DNA from: an uncultured Desulfatitalea sp.
GTDB taxonomy: Bacteria; Desulfobacterota; Desulfobacteria; Desulfobacterales; Desulfosarcinaceae
Length of the DNA stretch: 64,000 bases
Direction of reading: 5' to 3'
NCBI GenBank assembly: GCA_937868765.1
Contig: CALMNL010000004.1
Coordinates: 320,749-384,748, forward strand
The notes beneath the pieces were generated by a model. That model did no database searches and was not told the DNA's origin. It worked only from the letters and a program-made list of their open reading frames with translations. The position numbers were made by a program, and so were the translations under genes. Below, one piece after another: positions 2,377 through 22,189 of the stretch (position 1 is its first letter; each line of letters opens with the position of its first letter).

Positions 2377-3045
2377 ATGGAAACCAACGCGCGCGAAGCG
2401 ATCCTCGACCGGCTCAAATCCGCCCATCCCGCATCCGTGCCGCCGCGGCCCAGCCTGCCGCCGGCCAGGGAGCTGGCGCTGGATGCCGGGGAATGCGTGG
2501 CGCGCTTTCAGGAGCAGCTCGCGGCCCAGGGCGGGGTGGCTTTCCAAATGGCCGATGAAGCCGCCCTGCTGGCCAGGCTGGAAGAGATCCTGCGCCAGGA
2601 AGCGGTCACCCGCGCCATGGCTGCGGAGGATGCCGTCCTGGCGCCCCTGGACCTTTCGCCGTGGGGTAACCGCGTGGGTGTTGAGATCGTCTCCCCCGCC
2701 GCTTTCAATGACCGCGACGGCTACACCCGGGCAGTCTTCGACCAGGTCCAGGCCGGCATCACCGGCGCCGACTATGCCGTGGCCGAATCGGGCACCCTGG
2801 TGCTGGTCCATGACGCCCGCCAGCCGCGGCTGATCTCCCTGGCACCCCTGGTACACATCGCGGTGGTGCCGCTGGCGCGCGTCGTTCCCACGTATGAAGC
2901 GGCCATTGCGTCCCTCTTCGACGGCGGCCGCCGGCCTTCCCAGGTGACCCTGATCACCGGTCCCAGCATGACCGCCGACATCCAGGCCACACCCTTCCGA
3001 GGCATGCATGGCCCCCAGAAGCTTTACGTGCTGCTGCTGGGTTGA
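2377..3045 (+). CDS. lutC: Lactate utilisation protein C (LutC), LUD domain
   Basis: METNAREAILDRLK... with GITGADYAVAESGTLVL. Completes the lutABC order. GGGGAAAG lies upstream of the ATG. Confidence 0.75.
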   Translation: METNAREAILDRLKSAHPASVPPRPSLPPARELALDAGECVARFQEQLAAQGGVAFQMADEAALLARLEEILRQEAVTRAMAAEDAVLAPLDLSPWGNRVGVEIVSPAAFNDRDGYTRAVFDQVQAGITGADYAVAESGTLVLVHDARQPRLISLAPLVHIAVVPLARVVPTYEAAIASLFDGGRRPSQVTLITGPSMTADIQATPFRGMHGPQKLYVLLLG

Positions 3046-3128
3046 TCCTGGCCGACGACCAGGTCCGAAAACGTCTTGCCGCCCGCCACGGCGATGGTCA
3101 ATATAAAGCTGCGTTTGAAAATGATGCC

Positions 3129-4631
3129 ATGGGGAGCGACGAGGCGATGCTGGACGTACAAATCTGCGAAAGGGCCCGACTGGCCCGGGATGCCCGCTTC
3201 GACGGCCTGTTTTTCACAGGGGTGTTGAGCACCGGTATCTTCTGCCGCCCGATCTGCCCGGCGCCGCAGCCCAAGGCCAGGAATGTAGTCTATTTTCCTT
3301 CGGCCGCGGCCGCCGCCGCGGCGGGTCTGCGCCCCTGCCTGCGCTGTCGTCCGGAAGCGGCGCCCGGCACGCCGGCCTGGAACGGCACGGCGGCTACCGT
3401 CTCGCGGGCCCTGACCCTCATCCGCCAGGGGGCGCTGCAGAGCGGCGGTCTGAGCGCCCTGGCCGGGCGCCTGGGTGTCGGCCCCCGGCATCTGCGCCGC
3501 CTGTTCGAACGGCACCTGGGCACCTCACCCATGGCCATGGCCAATATCCAGCGGGTCTTATTCGCCAAAAAGCTATTGGCCGAAACGCAGTGGCCGATCA
3601 CCGAGATCGCCCTCTGCTCCGGTTTCGGCAGCATCCGGCGCTTCAATGCGGCCTTCCGCAACCTCTACGGCCGCTCCCCCGGCGATTTCCGCCGTGGTCT
3701 GGACGGGCGGCGCCCGGCGGACGCCGCCCGCTTCGAGTGCACCCTGACCCTGCCCTATCGCCCGCCTTATCATTGGGAGGCGATGCTGGCTTTCTTCGCC
3801 GCTCGGGCCATCCCCGGGGTGGAAAAGGTCACACCGGCGGGCTACCACCGCACCCTGCGCACCCTCGGCGGCCCGGGATGGCTGCAGGTGAGGCCTGCCC
3901 CGGCCGGCCATGCGCTGGCGCTGCAGATCTGCCTGCCCGACAGCCGCGGGCTCATGACGCTGGTGGATCGGGTCCGCCGCATGTTCGACCTGGACGCCAA
4001 TCTGGCAGCCGTGCAGCCGGTCCTGCTGGCCGATGAGGATTTGGCGCCCCTGGTGCGCCGCTATCCGGGCATGCGCCTGCCCGGGGCCTGGGACCCTTTC
4101 GAAACCGCCGTGCGGGCTGTGGTCGGCCAGCAGATTTCGATCAAGGCCGCGCGCACCCTGCTGGGCCGCATCGCCGCGAGCGCCGGACCTGCAGTTGCGA
4201 CCGTCCACCCGGGGCTGAGCCATTGCTTTCCCACGGCCGAAGAACTGCTTTGCGCAGCGCCGCCGCCCGGCCTAAGCCCCCGCCGCTGGCAAACCCTTGC
4301 CGGCCTGGCCCGGGCCATCGGCGACGGCGCCATCGAGCTGAGCCCGCACACCGACCTGGAAACCTTTGTGCAGGCCTTGACCCGCCTGCCCGGGATCGGG
4401 CCGTGGACCGCCCAGTACATAGCCATGCGGGCGCTGGGCGAACCGGATGCCTTTCCGGCCGGTGACCTGGGGTTGTGCCAGGCCCTTGAACGCAACGGCA
4501 CCCGGCCGACCCAGCGCCAGATCCTGGCACGAGCCGAGTCCTGGCGCCCCTGGCGAGCCTACGCAGCCACCTATCTCTGGCAGCGCATGGTTCCGGAGGG
4601 CGGCGAAAGCGTCGAGAAACAATCGGATTGA
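3129..4631 (+). CDS. Ada-AlkA fusion: N-Ada Zn-Cys methylphosphotriester-DNA methyltransferase plus AraC-type HTH, fused to DNA-3-methyladenine glycosylase II (AlkA, HhH-GPD)
   Basis: ARLARDARFDGLFFTGVLSTGIFCRPICPA...RPCLRCRP aligns with E. coli Ada 20-70 (zinc Cys cluster). This is followed by an AraC HTH (RRLFERHLGTSPMAMANIQRVLFAKKLL), then an HhH-GPD region (LPGIGPWTAQYIAMRALGEPDAFPAGD). Start at the ATG MGSDEAML; a TTG at 3042 is the alternative. Confidence 0.8.
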   Translation: MGSDEAMLDVQICERARLARDARFDGLFFTGVLSTGIFCRPICPAPQPKARNVVYFPSAAAAAAAGLRPCLRCRPEAAPGTPAWNGTAATVSRALTLIRQGALQSGGLSALAGRLGVGPRHLRRLFERHLGTSPMAMANIQRVLFAKKLLAETQWPITEIALCSGFGSIRRFNAAFRNLYGRSPGDFRRGLDGRRPADAARFECTLTLPYRPPYHWEAMLAFFAARAIPGVEKVTPAGYHRTLRTLGGPGWLQVRPAPAGHALALQICLPDSRGLMTLVDRVRRMFDLDANLAAVQPVLLADEDLAPLVRRYPGMRLPGAWDPFETAVRAVVGQQISIKAARTLLGRIAASAGPAVATVHPGLSHCFPTAEELLCAAPPPGLSPRRWQTLAGLARAIGDGAIELSPHTDLETFVQALTRLPGIGPWTAQYIAMRALGEPDAFPAGDLGLCQALERNGTRPTQRQILARAESWRPWRAYAATYLWQRMVPEGGESVEKQSD

Positions 4632-7749: not shown

Positions 7750-9069
7750 GTGGGCCAACACCATCGAGGAGCCATGCCGATACCCTTCAGCGACCCCCTT
7801 GTGCGTTTTATCTCCGCCGGCTGGCGCCTGGCCTTCCGGGAACCGCTCCCCGAAGGCCTCCGGCAGCATCTGGGCCGCATGCTCTCGTTCGGCGCCGCCA
7901 TCGCCGCGGCCCGCATCATTTCGGCCATGGCCCAAATCCTCATTGGAAGAATCCTCGGCCCGACGCAATATGGAAAGTTGACCATCGTGATGCTGCTGGC
8001 CGGTTACTTTTCCCTGCCCATCATCGGCGGATGGGGGCTCGCTTTCACGCGCGTGGCCGCAACGCAGATGGAAACCGAAAAGCGATTTCAAGCCCTCAAG
8101 GCCTTGCTGCTCATTTGTCTTTGCTTCGCCGTGGCGGTCGCCTTCGGCCTGTATCTCTTGCGCATTCCCTTGGGCGAATGGCTCAACATCCAGCGCCCAC
8201 TGATGAACCTGACGCTGGTGATGAGCCTGTTGTATGCCTGGTGGATTCTGGCCAAGCAGGTCGCCCAGGCTTTCCAGGCGTGGGGCAGTTATATCGCCGC
8301 AGACCTGGGGTGGGCCTTGTTGCTGCTGGGCCTTGCCGCCCTTTTGATGGCGCTCGGGCAAATGACCCTCACGACCGCCTGTGCGGCATTCTGGACAGCC
8401 TACTTTTTCTCCGGCCTGGCCCTGGCCAAATGGGCACGCAAAGTCATCGGCACGGGTCCGGCGGTTGCCTTTGCCCGACCGATATTGCAGCACGGCGGCA
8501 TTCTGCTGCTCAACGGCATCATCGGCACGGCCGCCTACAGTGTCGATCGGCTCCTGCTGCAACGCTTCCTCGGCCCTCAGGAGGTCGGTCTCTATCAAGC
8601 TCATCTGCTGGCCACCTTCGGTTTGGTCAGCTCTTTGATGAACCTGATATTAACCTACGCTTTCCCCCTCTTTTGCAGAGATGATCACAACGCCATGCAC
8701 CAGAGCCTCAAACGTATATCATGGCTACAATACCCATTCACGATACTGCTGTCCGCCGTGGTGGGGATGGCCGGCCTGTATCTCTATGGTTATCCGGTTT
8801 CGCCGCTCCTATTCATTTGCTTCTGTCTCTTCAGCGGCCTTCAGTTTCACAGCCAGATCAAGGCCTGGTATATTTCCAGCAAAGGCGCCGCCGCCACGCG
8901 ACGCGTGCTCGGTTCTCAATTGCTTTTTCTGGGCATGGTCATTGTGCTGCTGACAGGGCTCACGAAGCATCTTGGCATTCAGGCCGGCGGCGTATCGCTG
9001 GTGGCATCTTCCTTGATTTCGCTGCTGTATCTATCCAGAATCGAAAAAGGACTGCCCGGCAATTCCTGA
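7750..9069 (+). CDS. Polysaccharide biosynthesis protein / oligosaccharide flippase (MOP superfamily, Wzx-like)
   Basis: About 12 predicted TM helices throughout. GTG at 7750 or ATG at 7774 (GAGGAG lies 2 nt upstream of the ATG). Typical Wzx length. Confidence 0.65.
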   Translation: MGQHHRGAMPIPFSDPLVRFISAGWRLAFREPLPEGLRQHLGRMLSFGAAIAAARIISAMAQILIGRILGPTQYGKLTIVMLLAGYFSLPIIGGWGLAFTRVAATQMETEKRFQALKALLLICLCFAVAVAFGLYLLRIPLGEWLNIQRPLMNLTLVMSLLYAWWILAKQVAQAFQAWGSYIAADLGWALLLLGLAALLMALGQMTLTTACAAFWTAYFFSGLALAKWARKVIGTGPAVAFARPILQHGGILLLNGIIGTAAYSVDRLLLQRFLGPQEVGLYQAHLLATFGLVSSLMNLILTYAFPLFCRDDHNAMHQSLKRISWLQYPFTILLSAVVGMAGLYLYGYPVSPLLFICFCLFSGLQFHSQIKAWYISSKGAAATRRVLGSQLLFLGMVIVLLTGLTKHLGIQAGGVSLVASSLISLLYLSRIEKGLPGNS

Positions 9070-9097
9070 AAAGCGGCCGAGGCCGCCCATACCAACT

Positions 9098-9967
9098 GTG
9101 AGCGCACGTATGCCAAATATTGAGAAGGATCGCCGCTTTGCGTTCGGCAAAAACTGGCGCGGGTTTCTGTCGTCCTTAACCAAGGAAAACATTCGAATCG
9201 CCGAAGCGTCGCTCCAGAAAATGCTGATGACCGATACGCTTCGGGGAAAGACATTTCTGGATATCGGCTCGGGAAGCGGTTTGTTTTCCCTGGCCGCACG
9301 CAACCTGGGTGCAAACGTGCACTCGTTCGACCATGACCCCCTGTCAGTGGCCTGTACAGCGGAACTCCGGTCAAGGTATCATCCCGATGATCCCGATTGG
9401 TCGATCGAGGAAGGCTCCATTCTCAATGAGCGCTTCATCGCATCGCTGAAAAGCTACGACATCGTCTACGCATGGGGAGTGCTGCATCATACCGGAAACA
9501 TGTGGGCGGCCTTAGCGCATTCCGCTTCCCTAGTAAAACAAAAGGGCATCCTGTTCATAGCCATCTACAACGATCAGGGAAGGATATCGGCGTTTTGGAA
9601 AAGGGTGAAAAAGGCTTACTGTTCCGGAGTATTGGGCAAGGCGATGATTTCTTGCATCTTCATTCCGTGTTTCTTTTCAATCGCATTGATCTCCTGTGTA
9701 TCCAGAAAAGAGAACGCCTTTCGGCAATACAAGTGGAACAGAGGCATGTCGATGGTGCACGACTGGGTTGACTGGCTGGGCGGTTTTCCCTTCGAGGTCG
9801 CGTCAGTCGACGCAATCTTCCATTTCCTGCACCAAAAGAACTTTTCGCTCCTCAATCTCAAAATGACCCGCGGCTCGGGAAACAATCAATTCGTGTTTGT
9901 CAGGAAGAATTCCGCCGCCTCTGCCGGCACCGAAGGCACGACAGAGGCGGCGCGGGGTGCCGTTTAG
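9098..9967 (+). CDS. Class I SAM-dependent methyltransferase with a C-terminal hydrophobic anchor segment
   Basis: Motif I FLDIGSGSGLFSLAA, motif post-I HSFDHD, DIVYAWGVLHH. Hydrophobic stretch MISCIFIPCFFSIALISCV. Gene-sized drop in GC (about 50% by eye). Start GTG 9098 or ATG 9110. Stop overlaps the convergent ThiF gene stop (TTAG). Confidence 0.6.
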   Translation: MSARMPNIEKDRRFAFGKNWRGFLSSLTKENIRIAEASLQKMLMTDTLRGKTFLDIGSGSGLFSLAARNLGANVHSFDHDPLSVACTAELRSRYHPDDPDWSIEEGSILNERFIASLKSYDIVYAWGVLHHTGNMWAALAHSASLVKQKGILFIAIYNDQGRISAFWKRVKKAYCSGVLGKAMISCIFIPCFFSIALISCVSRKENAFRQYKWNRGMSMVHDWVDWLGGFPFEVASVDAIFHFLHQKNFSLLNLKMTRGSGNNQFVFVRKNSAASAGTEGTTEAARGAV

Positions 9968-12027
9968 CCGGCGATACGGATCAGCGGCGGCGCAGCGGGC
10001 AAGTCCATCGAGGCGCACGGCAGCGGGGAGGTCCGGTCGGGGGCCGGGGAGATAAAACCGGCAACGGGTTTGCGCAGGGTGCGGCAGGCGACCGGACGGC
10101 CGTGGCCGATGCGAAAGAGCATGACGTGGCGCTCCTGGTCTCCGGAAACGGCGAAGAGCCGCTCGTAACGCGGCCACAGGGCTTCGAGCAGCCGCTGGTG
10201 GGCAGGGCTGAAATCGGCCTTTGCGCCCAATTGCCAGCGCAACCGGAAAAGGGTGATGGCGGTCATGGGTTGGAAGTCCAATCCCAGGGAGGCGGCCGTA
10301 AGCCAGACCCTCTCCAGGGCCTGCCCGCCTTGGACGAAGTCGGCCGGCAGGCCTCCCTGGATCTTGAGCAACCCGATGGCCGAGGCGGAGCACATGCCCT
10401 GGTAGGATATCCTGGAGATCATTTTGCCCAGTCCCAGACAGTTCAGGACGGCCATCACGGGCCAGGGCCGGGTGCGGCGCAGCAGCCATTCGCCGGCAGG
10501 TCCGGCCTCCAGGTTCTTCAAGGGAAATCCGTCCCGCCGGGACAGGGCTTCCTGGGAGGTAAAACGGATCATGCGCATCAGGTGTTCGTGCAAGGCCCGA
10601 TGGCCCGAGCGGATGGTGTCGGCCGCGGCGACCAGGCGGGCCGCCTCTCGGATCTGTTTGCGGTCGGTGAGCAGCAGCAGCCGGGCGCCGTGGAACGCGG
10701 CGGCGGCCTCGATCCGGTGCTGCGCACCAGGTTCCAGGGGCCTGCCATCATACAGAGTGCGATTGGTGTGACGTTCCCAGATGAAGCGCTGCAAAGGATC
10801 TTCGGCCTCGTCCGTGGCGCTCAGGGATATTTCGAGGCCGGCCCGATCGGCGGTGGTCATGGCCACCCGGGCCGAGAGGCCGCAACGACCGGCGGCCAGC
10901 GCCAGGTTTTCGGCGGCCGCACCACAGCTGATCCAGGAGGCCATCTGGGCCACGTTGAAGAAGGAATCGTCGGCCGCCGGGTCCAGCATCACGTGCACGG
11001 TGTGGCCATCGACAGCGAAGCGCCAGGGCTGGCAGTTGTCTCCGGATGGTGCGCGGACGGCGGCTTGCAGCAGATAATCTCTCGTCTCGGCGGAGATTTC
11101 TCTTCCCATCGGTGCGAAGACGGTCGGTGCCTGGGGTCTGGACTCGTTCAGGTATTCGGAAAGAGCCCCGATTTTTGACGCGAGCAGGCGTCGCTTGAGC
11201 CGCTGCATGGGTCCCCGGTTGCCCATCCAGAGCCGGCCCATGTGGAAGCGGCGCGTAAACGGATCGTACTGGGCGTAGAAAGGCGCGGGGCGCAGGCCGG
11301 GTTTGCGCAGCAGAATGCGCAGCGCTTCGGCGGCGGCCGCAGCGGCGCTCAGCTGGCATCCGGCCGAAAGAGAAGGGCCGCGTCCCTCCGCCATACTGAT
11401 GCTCCCCGGCAGCGTATACCCCTTCTGGGCCGCCTTGGGCGCCAGCCCCACGAAGAAGGCGATCAATTTTTCCTCCATGGACATGCGGTCGTCAAGATCG
11501 AAGTACTGGTCGAAGGTCATGCCGCGATCCGGCGCAAAGATGAGCATGGCCGTACCGAACCCGATGGGGCCGGCGGTGATCGCGGGAATGCCTTTTTCCC
11601 GCGCCCGCCGGAAGAGCAGGCGCCGCAGTTCCAGGCTGAAGAAATCGATGCTGTCGACCAGCAGATCGACCCCCTCCAGAAAAGCGTCGATGTTCTGCGG
11701 CGTCACGCCCTGGGGAAAGGAGCGCACTTCGGCGTAAGGGTTGATGGCCTGCAACTCCCGGCGCATCACCTCGATCTTCGGCCGGCCGAAAGTTCCTACC
11801 CGGGCGCCGTGCTGGCGGTTGACGTTAACCGTTTCAAAGCGGTCGAAATCGGCCAGATGAAAGCGGCCGATGCCGGTACGGGCCAGGGTGATCAAATGGG
11901 CGCCGCCTACGCCTCCCAAGCCAGGCAAGGCCACGGTGGCCCGATGCAGCCGATCCTGCTCGGCCAGGGTGATGAAACCGATGTTGCGGGCAAAAGCCGC
12001 TTCCCAATAGGGATATCTGGAATTCAT
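9964..12027 (-). CDS. ThiF/MoeB-type E1-like adenylyltransferase fused to tandem nitroreductase-like (FMN oxidoreductase) domains; MoeY/McbC-SagB-like architecture
   Basis: N-terminus: LAEQDRLHRATVALPGLGGVGGAHLITLARTGIGRFHLADFDRFETVNVNRQ (E1 Rossmann GxGxxG plus NRQ). C-terminus: LLQAAVRAPSGDNCQPWRF (nitroreductase signature) and a second RHTNR...-type half. 687 aa. Confidence 0.7.
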   Translation of the reverse strand: MNSRYPYWEAAFARNIGFITLAEQDRLHRATVALPGLGGVGGAHLITLARTGIGRFHLADFDRFETVNVNRQHGARVGTFGRPKIEVMRRELQAINPYAEVRSFPQGVTPQNIDAFLEGVDLLVDSIDFFSLELRRLLFRRAREKGIPAITAGPIGFGTAMLIFAPDRGMTFDQYFDLDDRMSMEEKLIAFFVGLAPKAAQKGYTLPGSISMAEGRGPSLSAGCQLSAAAAAAEALRILLRKPGLRPAPFYAQYDPFTRRFHMGRLWMGNRGPMQRLKRRLLASKIGALSEYLNESRPQAPTVFAPMGREISAETRDYLLQAAVRAPSGDNCQPWRFAVDGHTVHVMLDPAADDSFFNVAQMASWISCGAAAENLALAAGRCGLSARVAMTTADRAGLEISLSATDEAEDPLQRFIWERHTNRTLYDGRPLEPGAQHRIEAAAAFHGARLLLLTDRKQIREAARLVAAADTIRSGHRALHEHLMRMIRFTSQEALSRRDGFPLKNLEAGPAGEWLLRRTRPWPVMAVLNCLGLGKMISRISYQGMCSASAIGLLKIQGGLPADFVQGGQALERVWLTAASLGLDFQPMTAITLFRLRWQLGAKADFSPAHQRLLEALWPRYERLFAVSGDQERHVMLFRIGHGRPVACRTLRKPVAGFISPAPDRTSPLPCASMDLPAAPPLIRIAG

Positions 12028-12055: not shown

Positions 12056-13222
12056 TCAGATCTGGACTTGCTGGGCCAGGCGGCCGCGGTCGATGACCCA
12101 GATGTGGGCCTGTTCGTCGTCGGCGGCGATCAGTCGATCCTGGGCCCAGGGCAGCACCATGCTGCGCAGGGAACGGCGGTCCAGGCCACACTGGCCGGCC
12201 AGCCAGCGCGCGTCCACCGGCTGGTTCTCTTTGCCGGCGGCCCCCACCAGGAGCCGTGCGGCCAGCGCCGTGGAAGGGTCGGTGGGGCCGTCCATCAGCC
12301 CGCGCAGCCGGGAAGCCAGCATTCGGCACAGGTGCAATGCCCGTTCGGGGTTGACGCGCAATTGCTCGAGGATCGCCGAACGGGGCCAGACCATCAGATC
12401 CACATCTTCGGAATGGGCCACCAGGCTGGCACTGCGCGGCCGCCCATCCAGGGCTGAGAGCTCTCCGAAGCATTGGCCCGGCCCCATGAGCAGGTGGCTG
12501 TCGGCTGCCTCCACCCCGTCGGCCGTCGGCGGCGCATCGGCTTGAACGCGCACCACGCCGCGCAGTACCTGAAATACTTCGCCACCGGCCTCCCCGCGCC
12601 GGAAGATTACTTCGTTCCGACGATAGAGGCGCCGCAGGCTCGACTCATCGAAGGGCCGCTCTTCGGGGTCCACCAAGCGCTCGCGACTGCCCGGCGGCAG
12701 GTTCTCCAGATCCACGTGCACCGGTACAATGGGCACCCCCAGCGCATGGTCCTGGATCGCGGGCGAAAGGGGGCGGGCCCCCACCAGACGCTGCATCAGC
12801 GGCAGGGCCGGCGGGTGCACCACGGCCAGGACATGGCGGGCCGGCGCCTGGCGCATCCGGCGGAAACACATCTGGATCAGTGACACCACCAGACCCGGAT
12901 GGCGCCGAAAGGCTTTGCGGATGCAGAACCAGCCCACCGTGGCGCACCCGCCGGTCAAGGTGCGCCGCAACGGTCCGAAATCAAAAGCGTGCTCGGCCGG
13001 CAGACCGGCCGGGCCATCCAGAACGAGGCGTATGCCGGCCACCGCCTCGCTGCCGCTGAAGGCCAGGTAGTTGCTGGTCTCCTCGAAACTGTCGTAGCGA
13101 TCGAAAATATGGTCCATGGTGAGGTGGAAACGCTGCTCCTCCGCCACGAACACCCCGTACCGCAAGCGGTACACCTCGGCCTTGTCGGCCGTCGAACGAA
13201 CGGTTCTCAATTCAATTGCCAT
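12056..13222 (-). CDS. Fusion: GNAT-fold N-acyltransferase (N-acyl amino acid synthase / Acetyltransf_5-like) plus cNMP-binding domain plus C-terminal Crp-type HTH
   Basis: MAIELRTV...AEVYRLRYGVFVAEEQRF is a LuxI/N-acyl-aa-synthase-like motif. FRRGEAGGEVFQVLRGVVRV...FGELSALDGRPRSASLVAHSEDVDLMV is cNMP-binding (beta-roll plus GEL[SA] motif). It is followed by a helix-turn-helix. AGGAGG RBS. Only 28 bp before the ThiF gene, so an operon. Confidence 0.6.
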   Translation of the reverse strand: MAIELRTVRSTADKAEVYRLRYGVFVAEEQRFHLTMDHIFDRYDSFEETSNYLAFSGSEAVAGIRLVLDGPAGLPAEHAFDFGPLRRTLTGGCATVGWFCIRKAFRRHPGLVVSLIQMCFRRMRQAPARHVLAVVHPPALPLMQRLVGARPLSPAIQDHALGVPIVPVHVDLENLPPGSRERLVDPEERPFDESSLRRLYRRNEVIFRRGEAGGEVFQVLRGVVRVQADAPPTADGVEAADSHLLMGPGQCFGELSALDGRPRSASLVAHSEDVDLMVWPRSAILEQLRVNPERALHLCRMLASRLRGLMDGPTDPSTALAARLLVGAAGKENQPVDARWLAGQCGLDRRSLRSMVLPWAQDRLIAADDEQAHIWVIDRGRLAQQVQI

Positions 13223-13261
13223 GGGATTCCTCCTATTGATTGATGTTGGCCCAAAGGAGCT

Positions 13262-13283
13262 CTTTTGCTCGATATGCAAAAGC
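13262..13283. promoter_or_regulatory. Perfect inverted repeat CTTTTGC-N7-GCAAAAG, 40-60 bp upstream of the GNAT-Crp start; candidate operator
   Basis: Read directly; 7-bp perfect arms. A second palindrome GCGCGCTG-N6-CAGCGCGC lies at 13307-13328. Confidence 0.35.
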
Positions 13284-13664
13284 AACTCCCCGAAATGCGC
13301 GCTGCCGATTCAGCGCGCAAGCGAGACAGTGGCTGCGCCGAGCGGGTGCGGCTGCGAGGCGACACGGCCGCGCACGAACCCCCGAATGGTTTCACCACCG
13401 CATACATCTAACCGTAATTGTTCAAAATGGATGGCAGAGCCGGGACAACGAAAAGGGAGATGGGGATATCCGGCAGGCGAGCAGCAAGCGTCCAAACGGC
13501 TCTTGCGCTCCTGCGGTGAACACCTTGGAAAGGCTGGAGATAGAGCGCTCGGCCATTTTGATCATCGACGAATCGGCTTTCGCTGGCAACAGCTAATGCA
13601 ATTCGCCGATTTCGCATCTTTTCCGGAAAGATGTCCCAAATGGCCGGCGGGGCGCGCAATGCGC

Positions 13665-13693
13665 TTGACACGGTTTTCAGCGGCCATTATAAA
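13665..13693 (+). promoter_or_regulatory. Near-consensus sigma70 promoter (TTGACA-17 nt-TATAAA) driving the small ORF at 13809
   Basis: TTGACA 13665-13670, 17-nt spacer, TATAAA 13688-13693. About 110-nt leader to AAGGAG-ATG. Confidence 0.55.
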
Positions 13694-13808
13694 GGCCCCT
13701 TTAGCCGCTGCGCCCACCCGTCCGGTTGGCGACGGCCACACGTTCGGCGGATTGGTCGATCAGGCTACCTGGTTGTTGACCCTATTATAAAAAAGGAGAA
13801 ATCCATCA

Positions 13809-14131
13809 TGGCGGACTATTTGATCAATGTTTTTCTGGATGATGCGAAGATGAAGAAGATCGAAGCGGCCGGTTTGGCCGACAAGATCATCGATCTGAAC
13901 GGCAAGAAGGCGGTACAGGTAGAGATGAGCGCCAAAGAGCAGAAGAAGCTGATCAAGGGTTTCACCGACCTGACCTTCGACGCCAACAACGCCTGCGAAT
14001 TGCCCGCTGAGGCCACGGACAAACTGCTGGGCATCATCGCCGACATGAAAACCCTGGATGTGATGAAATTCGCCATCATGAAGCTGTACAATCCCCTGGC
14101 CGGCAAAGCCCCCCGCTCGGCCCAGCGCTGA
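13809..14131 (+). CDS. Small Lys-rich hypothetical protein (107 aa)
   Basis: MADYLINVFLDDAKMKKIEAAGL... Strong RBS AAAGGAG, strong promoter upstream, rho-independent terminator downstream. Lower GC than neighbours. Confidence 0.6.
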
Positions 14132-14205: not shown

Positions 14206-15813
14206 TCACTGGATCTTCTTCAACGCCTGTTTGAGGACCTTGCCGGTGGGGTTGCGAGGGAACCGTTCCATGAAATCGATGCGTTCGGGGATCTTGTACT
14301 TGGCGATCTTGTCGCGCAGATAGGCTTGCACCTCTTCGGCCGTCAAGCTGCCCGGCCGCTTGAGCACGATGCAGGCCCGCACCCGCTCGCCCAGGGCGGC
14401 ATCGGGCATGCCCACCACGGCCACCTCGGCGATCTCGGGGTGCTTTTCCAGGGGGATTTCGATCTCGCGGGGGTAGATATTTTCACCGCCGCGGTTGATC
14501 ATCTCCTTGAGGCGGCCGGAAATATAGACGTACCCTTTTTCATCCATGTAGCCCATGTCCCCGGTGTGCAGCCACCCGTCGCGCAGGCTTTCGGCCGTGG
14601 CTTCGGGCTTGTTCAGATAACCGAGCATCACCGCCTCGCCCTTGACGCAGATCTCGCCCCTTTGCCCATAAGGCAGGATGCGGTTGGCGTCGTCCATGAT
14701 CTCCACCTCCAGTCCCGGAAACGCCGTGCCGATGGAGTTCCAGTTGGCCGGCACCCCGGTGCCGGTGGTGGAGACCCCGCAGGCTTCGGTCAGGCCGTAG
14801 CCGTCGATCACCTGGACGCCGAACTTCTCTTTGAACCCCTCGATGAGCCGCACCGGCATGGGCGCGGCCCCGCTGTGGGCCAGGCGCAGCTTGAGCCGGC
14901 CGTGGTCGATGGTTTGGGGATCGACGGCATTGTATATATAATCATACATGGCCGGCACTCCCTGTACAATCGTAACCCCGTAGCGCAGCAGCGAGGGCCA
15001 GAAATCGGCCGGCGAGAAGCTGCGCCGGATGCACAGGGTCAATCCCTGAAAAATGAACGGGTAGGTCCACACGCAGAGGGGATTGGTGTGGAACATGGGC
15101 AGGATGATCATCATCACGTCGCCGGGCCGGGTGGTGCCTAGTACCGCCCGGCCGCGGCAGATACACAACTGGTTGCGATTGGACAGCAGGATCCCCTTGG
15201 GCATGCCGGTGGTGCCCGACGAGTAGAGCAACAACAGGGCATCGTCCGGGGCCTGGGGCACCAGGCATTCATGGTCGGGATAATTCGCCAGAACCTCTTT
15301 CAGCGTGGTTTCGGCAACGGCCTGGCCGTGATCGATGCCGGTCACCACCTCCACGAGGGCCGGTTTGTGCCGGGAAAGCGCCAGGCCGGATGCGAAATCC
15401 ACCATGTACTCGCTGCCCACGAAAACCACCTTGGGCTTTGCATCTTCGAGCACATAGGCGATCTCCGGCCCCTTGAGCATGTAGTTGATGGCGCCGGCCA
15501 CGGCCCCCAGTTTCTGGGCGCCGAACATGGTGTAGTATATATCGGGGGAATTAAGGATCATGGTGGAAACGATGTCGCCCTTTTGCACCCCTTTGGACTT
15601 CAAGTAGTGGGCCACCCGATTGGCGCGCCGGTTGACCTGGGCATAGGTGACCACCTCGTCGTAATAAAGCACCAGCGGCGTATCGGGGATCTCGGCGGCC
15701 CGCGTTACCAGCATCTCGGCCACGCTGTCGAAGGCCAGGCGTTTTCCCGTCAAGGTATCCAGTTTCTCCAGAGGCACCAGTTCGCGCATCAGACGCTTGC
15801 TTTTATCGATCAT
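14206..15813 (-). CDS. Long-chain fatty acid--CoA ligase (AMP-dependent synthetase/ligase)
   Basis: LYSSGTTGMPKGI (AMP-binding motif I), YGLTE, GWLHTGDMGYMDEKGYVYISGRLKE, NPTGKVLK. Start MIDKSK has a GGGAGCAGGA RBS. Confidence 0.8.
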   Translation of the reverse strand: MIDKSKRLMRELVPLEKLDTLTGKRLAFDSVAEMLVTRAAEIPDTPLVLYYDEVVTYAQVNRRANRVAHYLKSKGVQKGDIVSTMILNSPDIYYTMFGAQKLGAVAGAINYMLKGPEIAYVLEDAKPKVVFVGSEYMVDFASGLALSRHKPALVEVVTGIDHGQAVAETTLKEVLANYPDHECLVPQAPDDALLLLYSSGTTGMPKGILLSNRNQLCICRGRAVLGTTRPGDVMMIILPMFHTNPLCVWTYPFIFQGLTLCIRRSFSPADFWPSLLRYGVTIVQGVPAMYDYIYNAVDPQTIDHGRLKLRLAHSGAAPMPVRLIEGFKEKFGVQVIDGYGLTEACGVSTTGTGVPANWNSIGTAFPGLEVEIMDDANRILPYGQRGEICVKGEAVMLGYLNKPEATAESLRDGWLHTGDMGYMDEKGYVYISGRLKEMINRGGENIYPREIEIPLEKHPEIAEVAVVGMPDAALGERVRACIVLKRPGSLTAEEVQAYLRDKIAKYKIPERIDFMERFPRNPTGKVLKQALKKIQ

Positions 15814-15943
15814 GAATCCTGCTCCCATTCCAGATATTCAGCTCAGACCCCAGCAACGCTATACCACGAGGCCGTGGGGATGCCATACCAAAAACGGCGG
15901 CCGGGCACGGCTGTTTCTTCTCATGAACCGCAGCCGGCAAAAA

Positions 15944-16299: not shown

Positions 16300-18747
16300 C
16301 TAATTGATCGGCGCCCGTCCGTCCGGTTGGCTGCCGCCTGACGGCTGCATGGCGAACGGGACATCGTGCTTGTGGAACAAGGTTTCGCCTTCGGCCAGCA
16401 CCAGCGCGTGGGGCAGCACTTCGTCCATGTGCTCCACGCTGATGATCTCCAGCTGTTTGGAGATGGTGGCCGGAATGTCCTTGAGATCCTTTTCGTTCTC
16501 CTTGGGAATGATGATCTTCTTGATGCCGCCCCGGTGCGCGGCCAGAATCTTCTCCTTGAGCCCGCCGATGGGCAGCACCCGCCCACGCAGGGTGATCTCG
16601 CCGGTCATAGCCACTTCGCGCCGGGAGGGACGCCTGGTCAGCGCCGACACCACCGAAGTGCACATGGCGATACCCGCTGACGGGCCATCCTTGGGAATGG
16701 CGCCTTCGGGAATGTGAATGTGCAGATCTACCTTGCGGTGGAAGTGGGCATCGATGCCCAAATGTTCCGCCCGGGAACGCACGAAGCTGATGGCCGCCTG
16801 GGCCGACTCTTTCATCACATCGCCCAGCTTGCCGGTGACCGTCACCTGGCCGCGGCCGGGCATGGTCAGGGTTTCCACGAAGAGCAGCTCGCCGCCCACC
16901 TGGGTCCAGGCCATGCCGGTGGCCATGCCGATCTGATCCTTTTCTTCGATCTCGGTGCTGCGGAAGCGCGGCGGGCCCAAGTACTTTGACACAGCGCTCT
17001 CGGTAACGCGCACCAGCTTGTCGGTCTTGGTCTTGACCACGTGGCGCGCCACCTTGCGGCAGATGCTGGCGATCTCCCGCTCCAGGTTGCGCACACCCGA
17101 TTCGCGCGTGTAGCGGTTGATCACCATGTAAACCGCTTTTTCGGAAATGGCGATCTGCTCCGGTGTCAGGCCGTTGGCCTTGATCTGTTTGGGTACCAGG
17201 AACTTTTCGGCGATTTTATACTTCTCGTGCTCGGTATAGCCCGGCAGACGGATGATCTCCATGCGGTCCTGGAGCGGCAGCGGAATGTCCGGCAAGGTAT
17301 TGGCCGTGGTGATGAACAGGACCTCGGACAGGTCGTAATCCAAGTCCAGATAGTGGTCGTTGAAGGCGTAATTCTGCTCCGGATCCAATACTTCCAGCAG
17401 GGCCGCGCTCGGGTCGCCGCGGAAATCCATGCTCATCTTATCGACTTCGTCCAGGCAGAAGACCGGGTTGTTGGTGCCGGCCTTTTTGAGCGACTGGATG
17501 ATCTTGCCGGGCAGCGCGCCGATGTAGGTGCGCCGGTGGCCGCGGATTTCGGCTTCGTCGCGCACGCCGCCCAGCGACAGCCGCACGAAGCGGCGCCCCG
17601 TGGCGCGGGCCACCGAGCGGGCCAGCGAAGTCTTGCCCACGCCGGGAGGCCCGACCAGGCACAGGATCGGTCCGCGGATCTTTTTGACCAGGGCCTGCAC
17701 GGCCAGATACTCCAAGATGCGCTCTTTGGGCTTTTCCAGGCCGTAGTGGTCTTCGTCGAGAATGCGCTCGGCTTCGGTGATGTCGATATGCACCCGGCTA
17801 CGTTCGAACCAGGGCAGGCTGATGATCCACTCGATGTAGTTACGCACCACGGTGGCTTCGGCCGACATGGGCGTCATCAGCTTGAGCTTCTTGAACTCCT
17901 GCTGGGTTTTGGCACTGGCCTCCCGGGGCATGCGCTTGCGCTTGATGCGCTTTTCCAGCTCCTGAAGTTCGTCGGCGGCTTCGTCTTCGGCCCCCATCTC
18001 CTTTCGGATCGCGCGCATCTGCTCGTTGAGGTAGTAATTCTTCTGGGTCTTTTCCATCTGTTCCTTGACCCGCCCCTTGATGCGCTGATCCATGCGGTAG
18101 ACTTCCACCTCCAGGTTGATCAGCTCCACCAGCAGGCTGAGCCGCCGATCGATGGGCATGGCTTCCAGCAGGCGCTGCTTGTCTTCGATCTTGAAAGAGA
18201 AATGGGCGGCCACGGCGTCGGCCATGCGCCCCGGATCGGACATGGCGCCGATCTTGGCCACCAGATCCTTGGCGATGTTCTTATTGAGCTTGGCGTAAGC
18301 TTCGAAGCTGTCTTTCACCGATCGCATCAGGGCTTCGGCCTCGGCTTCGGAGGCGATCACGTCGGGGATGGGATCGAGCTCCACCTGGAAGTATTCCTCG
18401 CCCATGATGAAGCGCCGCACCCGGGCGCGGGTCTGGCCTTCGACCAGGGCCTTGACCGTGCCGTCGGGCAGACGAAGCAACTGCAGCACCGTACCGATGA
18501 CGCCTATGCGGTTGATGTCTTTTTCAGTGGGGTTGTCCACATTGGCGCTGCGTTGGGTGGATAGAAAAATATGCTTGTCCGTGGTGTTCATGGCGCTTGA
18601 AAGCGCGGCCACCGATTTGGGCCGCCCCACGAACAGGGGCGCCACCATCTGGGGAAACACCACGATATCGCGTACCGGCAGCAGCGGCATCGTCCTGCCG
18701 GCCGGCGGATCGTTATCGTTTTTGAAAAATCGAGTTATGCTAACCAT
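16300..18747 (-). CDS. lon: ATP-dependent protease Lon (La)
   Basis: 815 aa. LON N-domain, Walker [14 protein letters not shown], and protease domain [20 protein letters not shown] (catalytic Ser). AAGGA RBS. Confidence 0.9.
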
Positions 18748-18863
18748 ATCCTTACGCCGGCAGCGCCGGCAGTCGTACCTCTTGAGGGTTATGGATCAAT
18801 TCAGGGTGTATTGGCGAAGCGCGCCGCCGGGCGATATCCGCTCAGCGGATACCGCCGCCGGGG

Positions 18864-20108
18864 TTAAGCCTGTTTCTTGGTCTGCTCGTAAAGCAGAATC
18901 GGATCTTCCTTGTGCAACACCACATCTTCGCTGATCACGCACTCTTTCACGTTTTCGATGGAAGGAATCTCGTACATGATGTCCAGCATGCAATCTTCCA
19001 GGATCGCCCGCAGGCCGCGCGCGCCCGATTTGCGCTTGATTGCCTGGTCGGCCACGGCCGCCAGGGCGCTGTCGGTGAGGCGCAGGTTGACCCCTTCCAC
19101 CTCGAACAGCTTCTGGTACTGTTTGACCAGGGCGTTTTTCGGTTCGGTCAGGATCCGCACCAGGGTCTTGGCGCTCAACTCGTCCAGGGTGGCGATCACC
19201 GGCAGACGGCCGAGAAATTCGGGGATCATGCCGTATTTGATCAAATCCTCGGGCTTTACTTCCTTGAGGATCTCGCCCAGGGAAGACTCTTTCTCCTTGA
19301 TCACCTTGGCGCCGAAGCCCATGGTCTTGGACCCCAGGCGGCGCTTGACGATCTGCTCCAGACCGTTGAACGTTCCGCCGCAGATGAACAGGATGTTGGT
19401 GGTATCCACCTTGACGAAATCCTGCTGGGGATGCTTGCGCCCGCCCTTGGGCGGCACGCTGGCCAGGGTGCCCTCGATGATTTTGAGCAGCGCCTGCTGC
19501 ACGCCTTCACCGGAGACATCCCGGGTGATGGAGGGATTGTCCGATTTGCTGGCGATCTTGTCGATCTCGTCGATGTAGACGATGCCCCGCTTGGCCTTCT
19601 CCACGTCGTAATCGGCGTTCTGCAGCAGCGACAGGATGATGTTTTCCACATCCTCGCCCACGTAGCCGGCCTCGGTCAGACTGGTGGCATCGGCGATGGT
19701 GAACGGCACGTTCAGAAAGCGGGCCAGGGTCTGGGCCAGCAGCGTCTTGCCGCTGCCGGTGGGGCCGATGAGCAGGATGTTGCTCTTCTGGATCTCCACA
19801 TCGCTGGTGCTCAAGGCCGAATCGAGCCGCTTGTAGTGGTTGTACACCGCCACGGAGAGGATCTTCTTGGCGGTCTCCTGCTCGATGACGTACTCGTCCA
19901 ACCTGGCCTTGATCTCCTTGGGAATCATCAGATTGGAAAGCTCGCCGGCTTCCTTCTCCGATTCTTCCTCGATGATCTCGCTGCACAACTGGATGCACTC
20001 GTCGCAGATATAGACGGCCGGACCGGCGATGAGCTTTTTGACCTCTTTCTGGTTTTTTCCGCAGAACGAGCAGAAGAGGTTGTCGTTGGGATCGTCTTTT
20101 TTTGCCAT
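18864..20108 (-). CDS. clpX: ATP-dependent Clp protease ATP-binding subunit ClpX
   Basis: Zn-finger [26 protein letters not shown], Walker [12 protein letters not shown]-like loop. Confidence 0.9.
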
Positions 20109-20113
20109 GATAA

Positions 20114-20728
20114 TTACTTCTCCATCTTATCGATATGCTCCAGGTCGTCGCGGTTGCGGATGACATGGTCCACGATGCCGTAATCCCTGGCTTCGATACC
20201 GGATAAGAAATAGTCCCGGTCGGTGTCCCGCTGGATCTGGGCGAGGTCCCGGCCGGTATGCTCCTTGAGGATCTTGTTCAAGGTTTCTTTCATGCGCAGG
20301 ATCTCTTTGGCCTGGATTTCGATGTCCGAGGCCTGGCCCTGAAAACCGCCCATGGGCTGATGGATCATGATGCGCGAATTGGGCAGCGAATAGCGCTTCT
20401 TGGCCGTCCCGGCCGCCAGCAGCAGGGCGCCCATGCTGGCCGCCTGACCGATGCAGACGGTGGCGATGTCGGGCTTGATGTACTGCATGGTATCGTATAC
20501 CGCCAGGCCTGCGGTCACCACGCCGCCCGGGGAATTGATGTAAAAGTTGATATCCTTATCAGGATCTTCCGATTCCAGAAAAAGCAACTGGGCGATCAGC
20601 AGGTTGGCCACCTCGTCGTTGATGGCCGTTCCCAGGAAGATGATGCGGTCTTTGAGCAGCCGGGAATAAATGTCGTAAGCCCGTTCGCCGCGACTGGTTT
20701 GGTCGATGACCATTGGGATCACTGGCAC
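20114..20728 (-). CDS. clpP: ATP-dependent Clp protease proteolytic subunit ClpP
   Basis: GTG start with [43 protein letters not shown] (catalytic Ser), MIHQP (His). Confidence 0.85.
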
Positions 20729-20878
20729 GATGTAACTCCTTTGAATATGAATGGTTGAATCGCCCGCGCGGAACCGCACCGGTTCGAGCCGCCTTGTAAA
20801 GGCCCAAACCGATTATATCGCCTCTGGCTTAGATATCAATAGCGCTTATTGGCCCGCATCCTTTGCGGGCAGGCGGCA

Positions 20879-22189
20879 TTATTTTTCGGTTACCGACGCA
20901 GCCTCTTTAATATTGCTGTTCTCTATGATAATCCGCAATGCCTTCTTTTCAAGCAACGTGTGTTTAAAAAAGGCCAGGTTGTCCTTGTCTTGATTGTAAA
21001 ACGCCTTGATGGTGGCGATGGGCTGGCGGAAGTTGTCGGCCATTTCCTGCAGGCCCTTTTCCAACTCCGCATCGCTCAATTCGAGTTTTTCCTGATCGAT
21101 GATCTTGGACAGGATCAGGTGCCGTCGCACCTGCTTTTCAGCCACCGGCCGATACTTTTCGGACAACACCGTGCGGTTGAGGCCCACCTCCTCCAAGGAA
21201 CGGTTATTGTTGGCAAAGGACCGCTCGGCATCGCTGAGGATATGTTCCAATTCGCTGTCCACCATCGTATCGGGCACTTCAAATTCGGTCTGCTCCAGCA
21301 ATTTCTGGAAAATCTGCTCATTGAGCTCCTGTTCCATGCGCTTTTCGTAACCGCCGACCAGGTTTTCGCGGATCTTGGTCTTTAGGGCATCCAGCGATTC
21401 GAACTGGTCGTTGAGATTTTTTGCGAATTGATCGTCCAGGGGCGGTAGAATCTCCTCGCGGATTTCGTTGAGGGTGACCTTAAACTGGATCTGCTGCCCG
21501 GCCAGGTCCTTGCTGAAATAGTCATCGGGAAAGGTAACGTCGATCTCCTTGAACTCCCCCGGCTTCATTCCCACCAGGCCTTCGTCCAGGTCCTTGACCA
21601 CCCGGCCCTCGCCCAGCTTGACGATGAAATTTTCGGTCTTCTGGGTCGCCTCGTGGGGTTGGCCGTCCTTGTACCCTTCGTAGTCGATCACGGCCACATC
21701 CCCAGTCTGCACGGGCCGGTCGGTCTCGACCTTTTTCTGCTGGGCCAGGTTGCGCTGCATCATCTTGAGCTGCAGATCGATCTCGTCGTCGCTGACCGCG
21801 TATTTGCTCTTGGTCAACTCAAAACCCTTGATCTGGATGTCGGCGATCTCGGGCCGCACTTCCACGGCGGCATCAAAGAGATAAGCGCTCTTTTCCTTGA
21901 GTTCTGGTGGATCCACCTTGGGGGAGCCCACGATCTGCAGATTGGTCTCCTTCAGGGCATGCAGAAACCCTTCCTGGATCAACTTCCCGGTGACATCGGC
22001 CCGCACATCCTTGCCGTAGATGCGCTCCAATACCGCACGGGGCGCCTTGCCGGGGCGAAAGCCTTTTATCTTGGCGGTCTTTTTGAGTTCGCCGTAGGCG
22101 CTTTCGACTTCCCGCGTCACCACCTCGGGGGGCACTTCGATATGCAACACTTTTTTGACACTGCTCTGATTCTCAACCGTCACTTTCAT
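20879..22189 (-). CDS. tig: Trigger factor (ribosome-associated PPIase chaperone)
   Basis: MKVTVENQSSVKKVLHIEVPPE...GFRPGKAPRAVLERIYG is the canonical TF N-terminus. 436 aa. Confidence 0.9.
   Translation of the reverse strand: MKVTVENQSSVKKVLHIEVPPEVVTREVESAYGELKKTAKIKGFRPGKAPRAVLERIYGKDVRADVTGKLIQEGFLHALKETNLQIVGSPKVDPPELKEKSAYLFDAAVEVRPEIADIQIKGFELTKSKYAVSDDEIDLQLKMMQRNLAQQKKVETDRPVQTGDVAVIDYEGYKDGQPHEATQKTENFIVKLGEGRVVKDLDEGLVGMKPGEFKEIDVTFPDDYFSKDLAGQQIQFKVTLNEIREEILPPLDDQFAKNLNDQFESLDALKTKIRENLVGGYEKRMEQELNEQIFQKLLEQTEFEVPDTMVDSELEHILSDAERSFANNNRSLEEVGLNRTVLSEKYRPVAEKQVRRHLILSKIIDQEKLELSDAELEKGLQEMADNFRQPIATIKAFYNQDKDNLAFFKHTLLEKKALRIIIENSNIKEAASVTEK

Follow-up and report, generated by a model that had tools for sequence, protein, structure and literature searches.

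N-acyl oxazolones were discovered in 2020-2021, with the OxzAB system, and were followed by TyzACB (2023) and TrzAS (2025) in Mycobacterium tuberculosis. OxzB, from Pseudoalteromonas rubra, and TrzS (Rv1355c), from M. tuberculosis, catalyse the ATP-dependent cyclisation, and then desaturation, of N-acyl amino acids (bioRxiv 10.1101/2020.06.11.147165; PMC12856293). An N-acyltransferase gene, called oxzA, trzA or tyzA, lies directly upstream and its product makes the substrates from acyl-CoA (bioRxiv 10.1101/2020.06.11.147165; PMC12856293; PMC10404671). Both the physiological role and the regulation of oxazolones are explicitly left as open questions in PMC12856293, where a part in signalling is suspected. 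Here, we analyse a 64-kb stretch of DNA from an uncultured Desulfatitalea sp. (contig CALMNL010000004.1), referred to below as the window; gene positions are in window numbering. One gene, at 12056..13222 (-), encodes an acyltransferase domain of the FeeM family joined to a Crp-like module for cyclic nucleotide monophosphate (cNMP) binding. With a probability of roughly 55%, judged from sequence comparison, this fusion protein takes the OxzA/TyzA/TrzA role, as the N-acyl amino acid synthase in a two-gene oxzAB/trzAS-like operon, and is gated by a Crp-derived cyclic-nucleotide sensor. We read the window as carrying such an operon, with a Crp-like module on the ‘A’ gene, because the fusion gene is followed by a ThiF-nitroreductase gene and because its N-terminal domain has the same closest structures as TyzA.

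The fusion gene and its acyltransferase domain

The fusion gene is a single open reading frame (ORF) of 388 amino acids (aa) plus stop. The ATG is at 13222 and the stop codon is at 12056-12058. Its features, and the evidence for them, are as follows.

12056..13222 (-): whole gene, predicted FeeM-type N-acyl amino acid synthase with Crp-like cNMP-binding/winged-helix module (ORF, Pfam domains and full-length homologues)
13229..13234 (-): ribosome-binding site (RBS) AGGAGG, 6 nt upstream of the ATG (sequence; the same AGGAGG in orthologous loci)
12710..13177 (-): FeeM/OxzA-like acyltransferase domain, aa 16-171
12638..12706 (-): conserved FeeM-barrel linker, aa 173-195, with R180, D185 and P186 invariant (alignment A1)
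12356..12631 (-): cyclic-nucleotide-binding (CNB) beta-barrel, aa 198-289 (Pfam PF00027; PDB profile and fold matches to the CNB domains of Crp, PKA/PKG and Bd1971)
12425..12469 (-): phosphate-binding cassette F252-G-E254-L-S-A-L-D-G-R-P-R263-S264-A-S266 (equivalents of Crp E72, R82 and S83)
12287..12352 (-): Crp-type C-helix, aa 291-312, with R307 invariant (model helix 292-310; alignments)
12059..12277 (-): winged-helix region, resembling the Crp DNA-binding domain, aa 316-388 (GlxR profile alignment; Foldseek match to Crp proteins)

An earlier note, made from the window alone, had proposed that a FeeM/N-acyl-amino-acid-synthase-like domain is fused here to a Crp-type regulator. The fusion is real. 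Both Pfam FeeM (PF21926, aa 16-171, E 2e-18, 67.1 bits against a cut-off of 27, covering positions 1-158 of the 158 in the profile) and Pfam cNMP_binding (PF00027, aa 198-289, E 4e-14) are found in the one ORF, and homologues are conserved over their full length. Twenty-nine protein clusters share both domains, with full-length coverage and 44-100% identity. Full-length homologues at 35-88% identity come from some 30 species-level MAGs, mostly of Desulfobacterales. A scan of genomes, one per species, yielded 34 loci whose products are 35-82% identical, all in metagenome-assembled genomes (MAGs). Nearly all hosts are Desulfobacterales, Desulfatitalea or Desulfosarcinaceae, with single bins from Riflebacteria, Myxococcales, Desulfohalobiaceae and Desulfocapsaceae. 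The closest relative, at 82% identity and with the same synteny, is from a groundwater Desulfobacterales MAG. Public automatic annotation describes the homologues as ‘cyclic nucleotide-binding domain-containing protein’ or ‘CRP-like cAMP-binding protein’.

A frameshift or sequencing error that joined two genes had been named as a possible refutation. We give this explanation, or a mis-assembly, almost no credence, and nothing speaks for it. The same continuous ORF occurs in all 29 clusters and all 34 loci, from independent assemblies and down to 35% identity, and the linker is conserved. There is no methionine near the domain boundary (the first after aa 172 is M246) and no internal start signal, which agrees with the initial observation that no internal stop or RBS could be seen. 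Mean pairwise identity in the linker is 0.51, on par with both flanking domains (alignment A1). The AlphaFold2 model of the fusion protein has a mean confidence (pLDDT) of 86.6 and a predicted template modelling score (pTM) of 0.86; the latter suggests that the FeeM and CNB domains are held in a fixed arrangement. Together, the conserved linker and high pTM are consistent with a fixed FeeM-CNB interface.

The FeeM domain is the best conserved part of the protein, with a mean pairwise identity of 0.55, compared to 0.38 for the winged helix. The motif first noticed, YRLRYGVFVAEEQRF, corresponds to aa 18-32. Residues R21, E28, E29, R31, D41, D44, N51, R65, G73, P75, W98, C100, R106, H130, P137 and P167 are invariant across the family, and a loop typical of GCN5-related N-acetyltransferases (GNATs), R107-x-x-G110, is present. 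Searches of PDB sequences, with the N-terminal domain alone or its profile, gave only weak matches (the best being RpaI, E 0.025), so a fold search was needed. This places FeeM and acyl-homoserine lactone (AHL) synthases closest, as a GNAT fold of the FeeM/AHL-synthase type. Membership of two neighbouring families was rejected. For LuxI-type AHL synthases, the resemblance is at the level of fold only: the Autoind_synth model (PF00765) has no match in the fusion protein, and matches in relatives are sub-threshold or borderline. For the PEP-CTERM/exosortase-associated acyltransferases (TIGR03694), the score is 18.8 bits against a cut-off of 112.

Could this domain be degenerate, binding a ligand without catalysis and so giving a Crp regulator an additional sensor? 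Such a worry had been raised at the outset. In an alignment by eye, the Glu, Ser and Arg of the LuxI-type ‘ExSR’ strand are seemingly replaced by T95-V96-G97-W98. Sequence similarity to solved GNATs is also weak, in both single-sequence and profile searches. Conversely, the R-x-x-G loop is kept, and all of the invariant residues are common to orthologous FeeM domains fused to ThiF-nitroreductase enzymes (alignment A2). The domain is conserved even where the sensor decays. Furthermore, the 64-kb window contains no second FeeM-like gene, so this is the sole candidate synthase beside the ThiF-nitroreductase gene, and the pathway needs the FeeM domain of the fusion protein to be catalytic. We consider a degenerate domain highly improbable.

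The ThiF-nitroreductase partner and a probable oxazolone pathway

The gene immediately downstream, separated from the fusion gene stop codon by 28 nt, is the presumed operon partner.

9964..12027 (-): OxzB/TrzS-like di-domain protein of 687 aa, ThiF (E1-like adenylating/cyclising) plus nitroreductase-fold flavin oxidase, with its own RBS

Pfam ThiF matches at aa 13-263 (E 1e-44), alongside Pfam Nitroreductase, and an NCBIfam Acg-family match covers aa 319-655. The NCBIfam relatives are PRK14851/PRK14852, the ‘Rv1355c family’ (E 8.5e-94) and the ‘Acg family FMN-binding oxidoreductase’ (E 2.3e-46). By sequence, the protein is an OxzB/TrzS homologue, outside the curated equivalog. The best match among PDB sequences is TcdA, the tRNA t6A cyclodehydratase. 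The ThiF adenylation motif is intact (GLGGVGG and DFDxxxxxNxNRQ), and VDSID128 aligns with LDCTD127 of ThiF, the equivalent of TrzS D217.

This pairing is conserved. A ThiF-nitroreductase homologue is directly downstream of the fusion gene and co-directional with it in all 25 loci of the Desulfobacterales type, which are 43-82% identical. In several more distant loci (L026, L032, L038 and L040) the gene is nearby but not adjacent. Many of the 622 homologues of the ThiF-nitroreductase protein reach 850-900 aa and carry PF21926 as an additional domain (L008 is an example). Their first 175 residues clearly belong to the same FeeM subfamily as the fusion protein. Such direct fusions of FeeM to ThiF-nitroreductase occur in other Desulfobacterota. 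In Desulfobacter postgatei (L006), a stand-alone FeeM/Acetyltransf_5 gene sits beside ThiF-nitroreductase, with LolA-like, DUF1302 and MacB-type export genes around it.

On these grounds, the FeeM domain would condense acyl-CoA (or acyl-acyl carrier protein) with an amino acid, as its fold, family and operon position indicate. Its neighbour, by homology to OxzB and TrzS, would adenylate the free carboxylate, cyclise the molecule to a 5(4H)-oxazolone and desaturate it. We infer that the fusion protein makes an N-acyl amino acid, which the neighbour would turn into an oxazolone or a dehydro-amino-acid lipid.

Other genes near these operons were also noted. In L006, L031, L033 and L035, ThiF-nitroreductase or FeeM-Crp genes adjoin LolA-like (TP_0789), DUF1302/DUF1329, MacB-type ABC or MMPL genes, which hints that lipid products may be sent to the outer membrane. 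A possible supplier of acyl-CoA is encoded in the window itself.

14206..15828 (-): long-chain-type acyl-CoA ligase of 540 aa, possible acyl-CoA supplier (Pfam AMP-binding, E 3e-83; NCBIfam long-chain-fatty-acid--CoA ligase subfamily)

The link is weak: the ligase gene is syntenic in L003, L009 and L010 only, and a divergent gene, encoding a DUF6955 protein, lies between it and the operon. Since this synteny is restricted to the closest clade, neither the ligase nor DUF6955 was accepted as a core part of the operon.

The Crp-like module and proposed control of the operon

We consider first the barrel. Its best sequence and fold matches are cAMP- and cGMP-binding domains. Cassette residues E254, R263 and S264 correspond to E72, R82 and S83 of Crp/CAP, and the cassette is canonical in 29 of the 34 family members. 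In CAP, these three residues make the ribose-phosphate contacts that define cNMP binding (PMC10187061). A nucleotide ligand is thus favoured over an acylated one, and the barrel is inferred to bind a cyclic nucleotide and gate the synthase.

The remainder of the module is built like Crp. Positions 190-385 of the family profile align with residues 23-222 of the GlxR/Crp chain, from the barrel through the DNA-binding domain, and the AlphaFold2 model matches full-length MtbCRP and GlxR over ~205 columns (Foldseek E ~1e-13). The complete Crp/Fnr layout is present, namely a barrel, a long dimerisation helix and a C-terminal winged helix. Such completeness supports a rival explanation, in which the protein is a bifunctional ‘trigger enzyme’: an acyltransferase that is also a genuine transcription factor, with cNMP-dependent binding to operators at its own promoter or elsewhere. 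BirA, PutA and NadR would be analogues.

The sequence of the winged helix is less favourable to DNA binding. At E <= 1, no Pfam HTH_Crp_2/Crp helix-turn-helix (HTH) model matches aa 290-388, while ordinary Crp proteins in the homologue search carry PF13545. The earlier note had asked whether the Crp DNA-recognition signature R-E-x-x-x-R is retained, and it is not. Residues R180-E181-T-V-G-R185 of CAP are equivalent to R349-R350-S351-L352-R353-S354. Of the signature, the first Arg alone survives: R349, at the R180 position, speaks for DNA reading but is restricted to the closest clade, that of the window. At the first two recognition positions, other clades carry G-G, W-L or W-P instead, and the E181 and R185 equivalents are conserved nowhere. 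Most members have a neutral or acidic recognition helix, the net charge of the winged helix is about neutral, and this is the least conserved domain.

In one lineage the HTH has been removed naturally. The P0024/L002 proteins (L002 8001-9044, Desulfatitalea-related, 12 member sequences) are 347 aa long, with the HTH helices deleted and both E254 and R263 lost. Conversely, the FeeM domain is 87% identical to that of its relative, and an intact ThiF-nitroreductase gene is 45 nt downstream. Hence, FeeM is the core and the Crp module is an accessory. The copy in Desulfatitalea sp. UBA4791 is degraded further, to 213 aa (L028 1020-1660). A second copy in this MAG, the distant paralogue L040, is accompanied by a ThiF-nitroreductase gene of its own, which lies on the opposite strand.

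The wider FeeM subfamily provides a further guide. An exhaustive HMMER search, with a FeeM-domain profile against 1.84 billion representatives, gave 316 clusters at E <= 1e-10, and architectures were counted for the best 150 of the 316 (50%-identity clusters). Among these 150, 47 are short proteins with FeeM only. A further 48 are FeeM plus CNB proteins of ~300-330 aa, in which a local winged helix-turn-helix (wHTH) profile detects no winged helix. Another 31, of ~350-450 aa, have a CNB and a winged helix that is detectable or not. The remainder include FeeM-CNB-CNB-wHTH, FeeM-CNB-O-methyltransferase and FeeM-CNB-P450 proteins. The FeeM and cNMP_binding domains occur together in at least 84 of the best 150 clusters, and the form without HTH is the commonest fused one. 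Five ~300-330-aa proteins scanned against Pfam contain FeeM (as Acetyltransf_5 and weak Autoind_synth) and cNMP_binding only. The 309-aa form is a complete gene; it sits on contigs of 3-4 kb, where the neighbourhood is uninformative. That a CNB occurs on synthases with no DNA-binding domain suggests that the barrel acts on the enzyme.

Larger fusions were seen in the same search, in which an O-methyltransferase (with a winged-helix ‘Dimerisation’ domain), a cytochrome P450 or a second CNB plus winged helix is attached to the FeeM-CNB core. By sequence, they resemble a family of lipoamino-acid synthases in which both a sensor and tailoring enzymes are built in.

P0174 and P0183: larger FeeM-CNB fusions, ~640 aa
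P0283: larger FeeM-CNB fusion, 720 aa
P0230 and P0265: larger FeeM-CNB fusions, ~540 aa

Note that more distant FeeM-Crp homologues adjoin B12-radical-SAM enzymes or lipid-export genes instead of ThiF-nitroreductase. Hence, the sensor-synthase unit is broader than the oxazolone pathway. In Riflebacteria (L027) and Myxococcales (L029) MAGs, B12-binding radical SAM enzymes flank the FeeM-Crp gene. L027 also encodes a second protein, of 678 aa, that matches FeeM weakly and includes a cNMP-binding domain.

L027 980-3016, 3067-5985 and 7163-8617: features of the Riflebacteria locus
L029 8816-10237: feature of the Myxococcales locus

Next, we turn to the promoter.

13275..13289 (-): sigma-54-type promoter GGAGTTGCTTTTGCA (-24 GG/-12 TTGCA), 67 nt upstream of the ATG (conservation in orthologous loci)

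Elements at -24 (GG) and -12 ((T)TGC), spaced by 10 nt, are conserved upstream of the orthologues. The pattern GG-N8-YTGCW, typically GGCGCAAATTTTGCA, occurs 60-180 nt upstream of the start codon in 23 of the 23 ThiF-nitroreductase-coupled loci. In controls, 1.9 loci were expected from shuffles and 3 were found on the reverse strand. Flanking DNA is otherwise not alignable across the 23 loci. The element is present in only 1 of 13 loci from distant clades, and in neither of two loci lacking the Crp fusion (the L008 triple fusion and L006 of D. postgatei). Because the loose sigma-54 pattern is frequent in the GC-rich window (83 matches), the argument for this promoter rests on conservation. No sigma-54 AAA+ activator, which could lie elsewhere, was found among the 30 large ORFs of the window that were scanned, the 585-bp upstream region has no Rfam match at E <= 1 (a riboswitch or other known RNA), and a simple scan for sigma-70 promoters and terminators gave nothing useful for the operon. 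Elsewhere, in L020, L023 and L021, an inverted repeat, AAAGTGGAC-N15/16-GTGCACTTT, is conserved ~150-165 nt upstream of the sigma-54-type promoters. The AAAGTGGAC/GTGCACTTT repeat is a candidate upstream activating site for an enhancer-binding protein; it is not seen in the clade of the window.

For a trigger enzyme, an operator might be expected here, and imperfect palindromes beside the promoter in the closest relatives count in its favour. One, the 16-bp CAAAGGAGCTCTTTTG, is at 13252-13267, between the -12 element and the RBS and close to where transcription should start. Partial conservation of this palindrome is seen in L003, L009 and L010 but does not extend to L011 or to other clades. 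The other is the short CTTTTGC-N7-GCAAAAG. The search for a conserved Crp-box-like operator turned up only these palindromes, which are short, imperfect and limited to the closest clade. Moreover, a sigma-54-type promoter is not activatable by Crp-type proteins alone. With the unmatched HTH models, the degenerate recognition residues, the commoner HTH-less FeeM-CNB proteins and a natural HTH deletion that leaves the operon intact, we consider a trigger enzyme possible but unlikely. We hold it quite unlikely, too, that synthase and receptor are combined in this single polypeptide, which would both regulate by cyclic-nucleotide-dependent DNA binding and make the first intermediate of an oxazolone/N-acyl amino acid signal. 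If so, second-messenger state, gene expression and AHL-like lipid production would be coupled in one molecule of sulfate-reducing bacteria. Such a protein would represent a kind of ‘trigger enzyme’ not known before, and would offer a first regulatory way into the physiological role of bacterial oxazolones.

The gated synthase is hence our preferred reading. Of the two options first put forward, an enzyme gated by a cyclic nucleotide is favoured by the comparative data. The alternative, a one-component regulator that makes its own acylated effector, found no positive support: the DNA-reading residues are lost and the cassette is of the nucleotide type. In the mechanism that we propose, the barrel would bind a cyclic nucleotide and gate the synthase, probably as a Crp-like dimer held by the C-helix. 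The winged-helix end would be an inherited part of the Crp module that has lost its DNA-reading residues and is apparently dispensable in at least one lineage. Transcription would be under separate control, from the conserved sigma-54-type promoter and the enhancer-binding protein that such a promoter needs. A lipoamino-acid/oxazolone product would thereby be controlled at two levels, with sigma-54 acting on transcription and a second messenger on the enzyme.

Several observations weigh against a gated synthase of this kind. First, the neighbour falls below the NCBIfam cut-offs for the Rv1355c family (NF005901, 315 against 476 bits) and for Acg (159 against 199 bits); its best model, PRK14851 ‘hypothetical protein’, scores 796 against a cut-off of 1170. 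Second, characterised flavin oxidases of the oxazolone pathway use O2, and the hosts here are presumably anaerobic sulfate reducers. Third, no adenylate or guanylate cyclase is present among the 30 large ORFs of the window. Fourth, the wHTH is kept in >30 species with a conserved positioning-helix motif, W340-L-x-x-Q344-C-G346 (WLxxQCG). This retention, also a point for the trigger enzyme, implies some selected function that gating leaves unexplained. Finally, the barrel departs from Crp in two respects. The residues that contact adenine in Crp, T127 and S128, are L309 and M310 in the fusion protein and vary across the family. In addition, the cassette Arg or Glu is missing from five of the 34 members, among them a whole Desulfatitalea clade, which has lost the Arg.

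These last differences also favour a ligand other than a nucleotide. Haem, 2-oxoglutarate and aromatic acids are ligands of other Crp/Fnr members, and the barrel might likewise sense the N-acyl amino acid/oxazolone product, or acyl-CoA, for product feedback or substrate activation. Most of the five members without the cassette Arg or Glu still have the whole module, and the fold matches include NtcA and further Crp/Fnr proteins of the non-cNMP kind. Against this stand the FGE...R[ST] ribose-phosphate signature, found in all but those five members, and the cAMP- and cGMP-binding domains that match best. We judge a non-nucleotide ligand distinctly improbable, and retain the cyclic nucleotide as the probable signal for the synthase.

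The operon is surrounded by ordinary chromosomal genes, namely those for trigger factor, ClpX and Lon (16300-22189 (-)), for an Ada-AraC-AlkA fusion, and for a polysaccharide flippase and a methyltransferase, the last two being syntenic with L003. Nothing in these surroundings points to a mobile element. The divergent DUF6955 protein (107 aa, 13808-14131 (+), Pfam E 2e-25) is 86-88% identical in relatives, compared to 66-82% for the flanking genes, and is linked to the operon in the closest clade only. A near-consensus sigma-70 promoter, TTGACA-17 nt-TATAAA, at 13665-13693 (+), is ~115 nt upstream of the DUF6955 gene, and L009-L011 share it. At 62698-63999 (-) is a gene for a haem-copper oxidase subunit I (COX1, E 9e-55). 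Note that, in a host presumed to reduce sulfate, this bears on the feasibility of O2-dependent desaturation.

3042-4631 (+): other surrounding stretch
7750-9967 (+): other surrounding stretch

Comparison with known systems

Full-text literature searches found no paper that describes a FeeM-Crp/cNMP fusion. Similarly, papers on oxazolone biosynthesis make no mention of cyclic-nucleotide or Crp fusions, or of Desulfobacterota. As a statement about sequences, the claim that the domain fusion is novel went too far, since the architecture is already in public data, as the survey of FeeM clusters shows. OxzAB-type operons, CNB-regulated enzymes (such as Rv0998 and Bd1971) and Crp modules are each already known.

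A cyclic-nucleotide sensor on the first enzyme, together with a sigma-54-type promoter, leads to a testable hypothesis, that lipoamino-acid/oxazolone synthesis is gated by cNMP. Most likely, the built-in sensor links these lipids to second-messenger signalling. The pathway would also be extended to presumably anaerobic Desulfobacterota, where O2-dependent desaturation could not work as described. Finally, FeeM-CNB is a recurrent enzyme core, and such proteins could serve as ligand-switchable acyltransferases for biocatalysis.

The closest described system is OxzA/OxzB of P. rubra (de Rond et al., bioRxiv 10.1101/2020.06.11.147165). There, too, an N-acyltransferase gene is immediately upstream of a ThiF-nitroreductase di-domain gene, in a co-directional two-gene operon, and the acyltransferase is a GNAT of the FeeM/AHL-synthase-like type. 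This likeness is known from layout and domains. OxzA is stand-alone, whereas the fusion protein adds ~200 residues of Crp-like sensor. The hosts also differ, being alpha-, beta- and gammaproteobacteria in the OxzAB survey and Desulfobacterota MAGs for the fusion. TrzS (Rv1355c) resembles the neighbour in having ThiF and a flavin-dependent oxidase in one protein, and the adenylation Asp of ThiF is conserved between them. The closest structures to TyzA are FeeM and BjaI (PMC10404671); for the fusion protein they are FeeM and AHL synthases. No regulatory domain has been reported for TrzA (Rv1356c) or TyzA (PMC12856293, PMC10404671), and the characterised oxidases of TrzS and TyzACB need O2. FeeM itself is ACP-dependent and stand-alone, and its sequence is only 13-14% identical to the domain described here.

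The Crp/Fnr factors, such as E. coli CAP, M. tuberculosis Crp and C. glutamicum GlxR, have a barrel, C-helix and winged helix of the same order and fold, and E72, R82 and S83 have equivalents in the fusion protein. Unlike them, it has ~190 aa of enzyme before the barrel, and neither RETVGR nor T127/S128 are kept. BirA, PutA and NadR each combine a metabolic enzyme with a (winged-)helix-turn-helix in one polypeptide, and their DNA binding has been demonstrated. In the fusion protein, by contrast, the DNA-reading residues are not conserved and relatives without the HTH are commoner. In Rv0998 of M. tuberculosis, the CNB domain lies at the N-terminus, ahead of a GNAT that acetylates lysines in proteins. 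The fusion protein has the reverse order of domains, with a GNAT of the FeeM/lipoamino-acid type, and continues into the Crp C-helix and winged helix. Nevertheless, Rv0998 (KATmt, PDB 4AVA), which likewise pairs a CNB with a GNAT, and the cAMP-sensing EAL phosphodiesterase Bd1971 (PDB 6HQ3; PMC6717892) are both among the structural matches. In each, the CNB domain allosterically regulates an enzyme in the same polypeptide, as we propose for the FeeM domain here.

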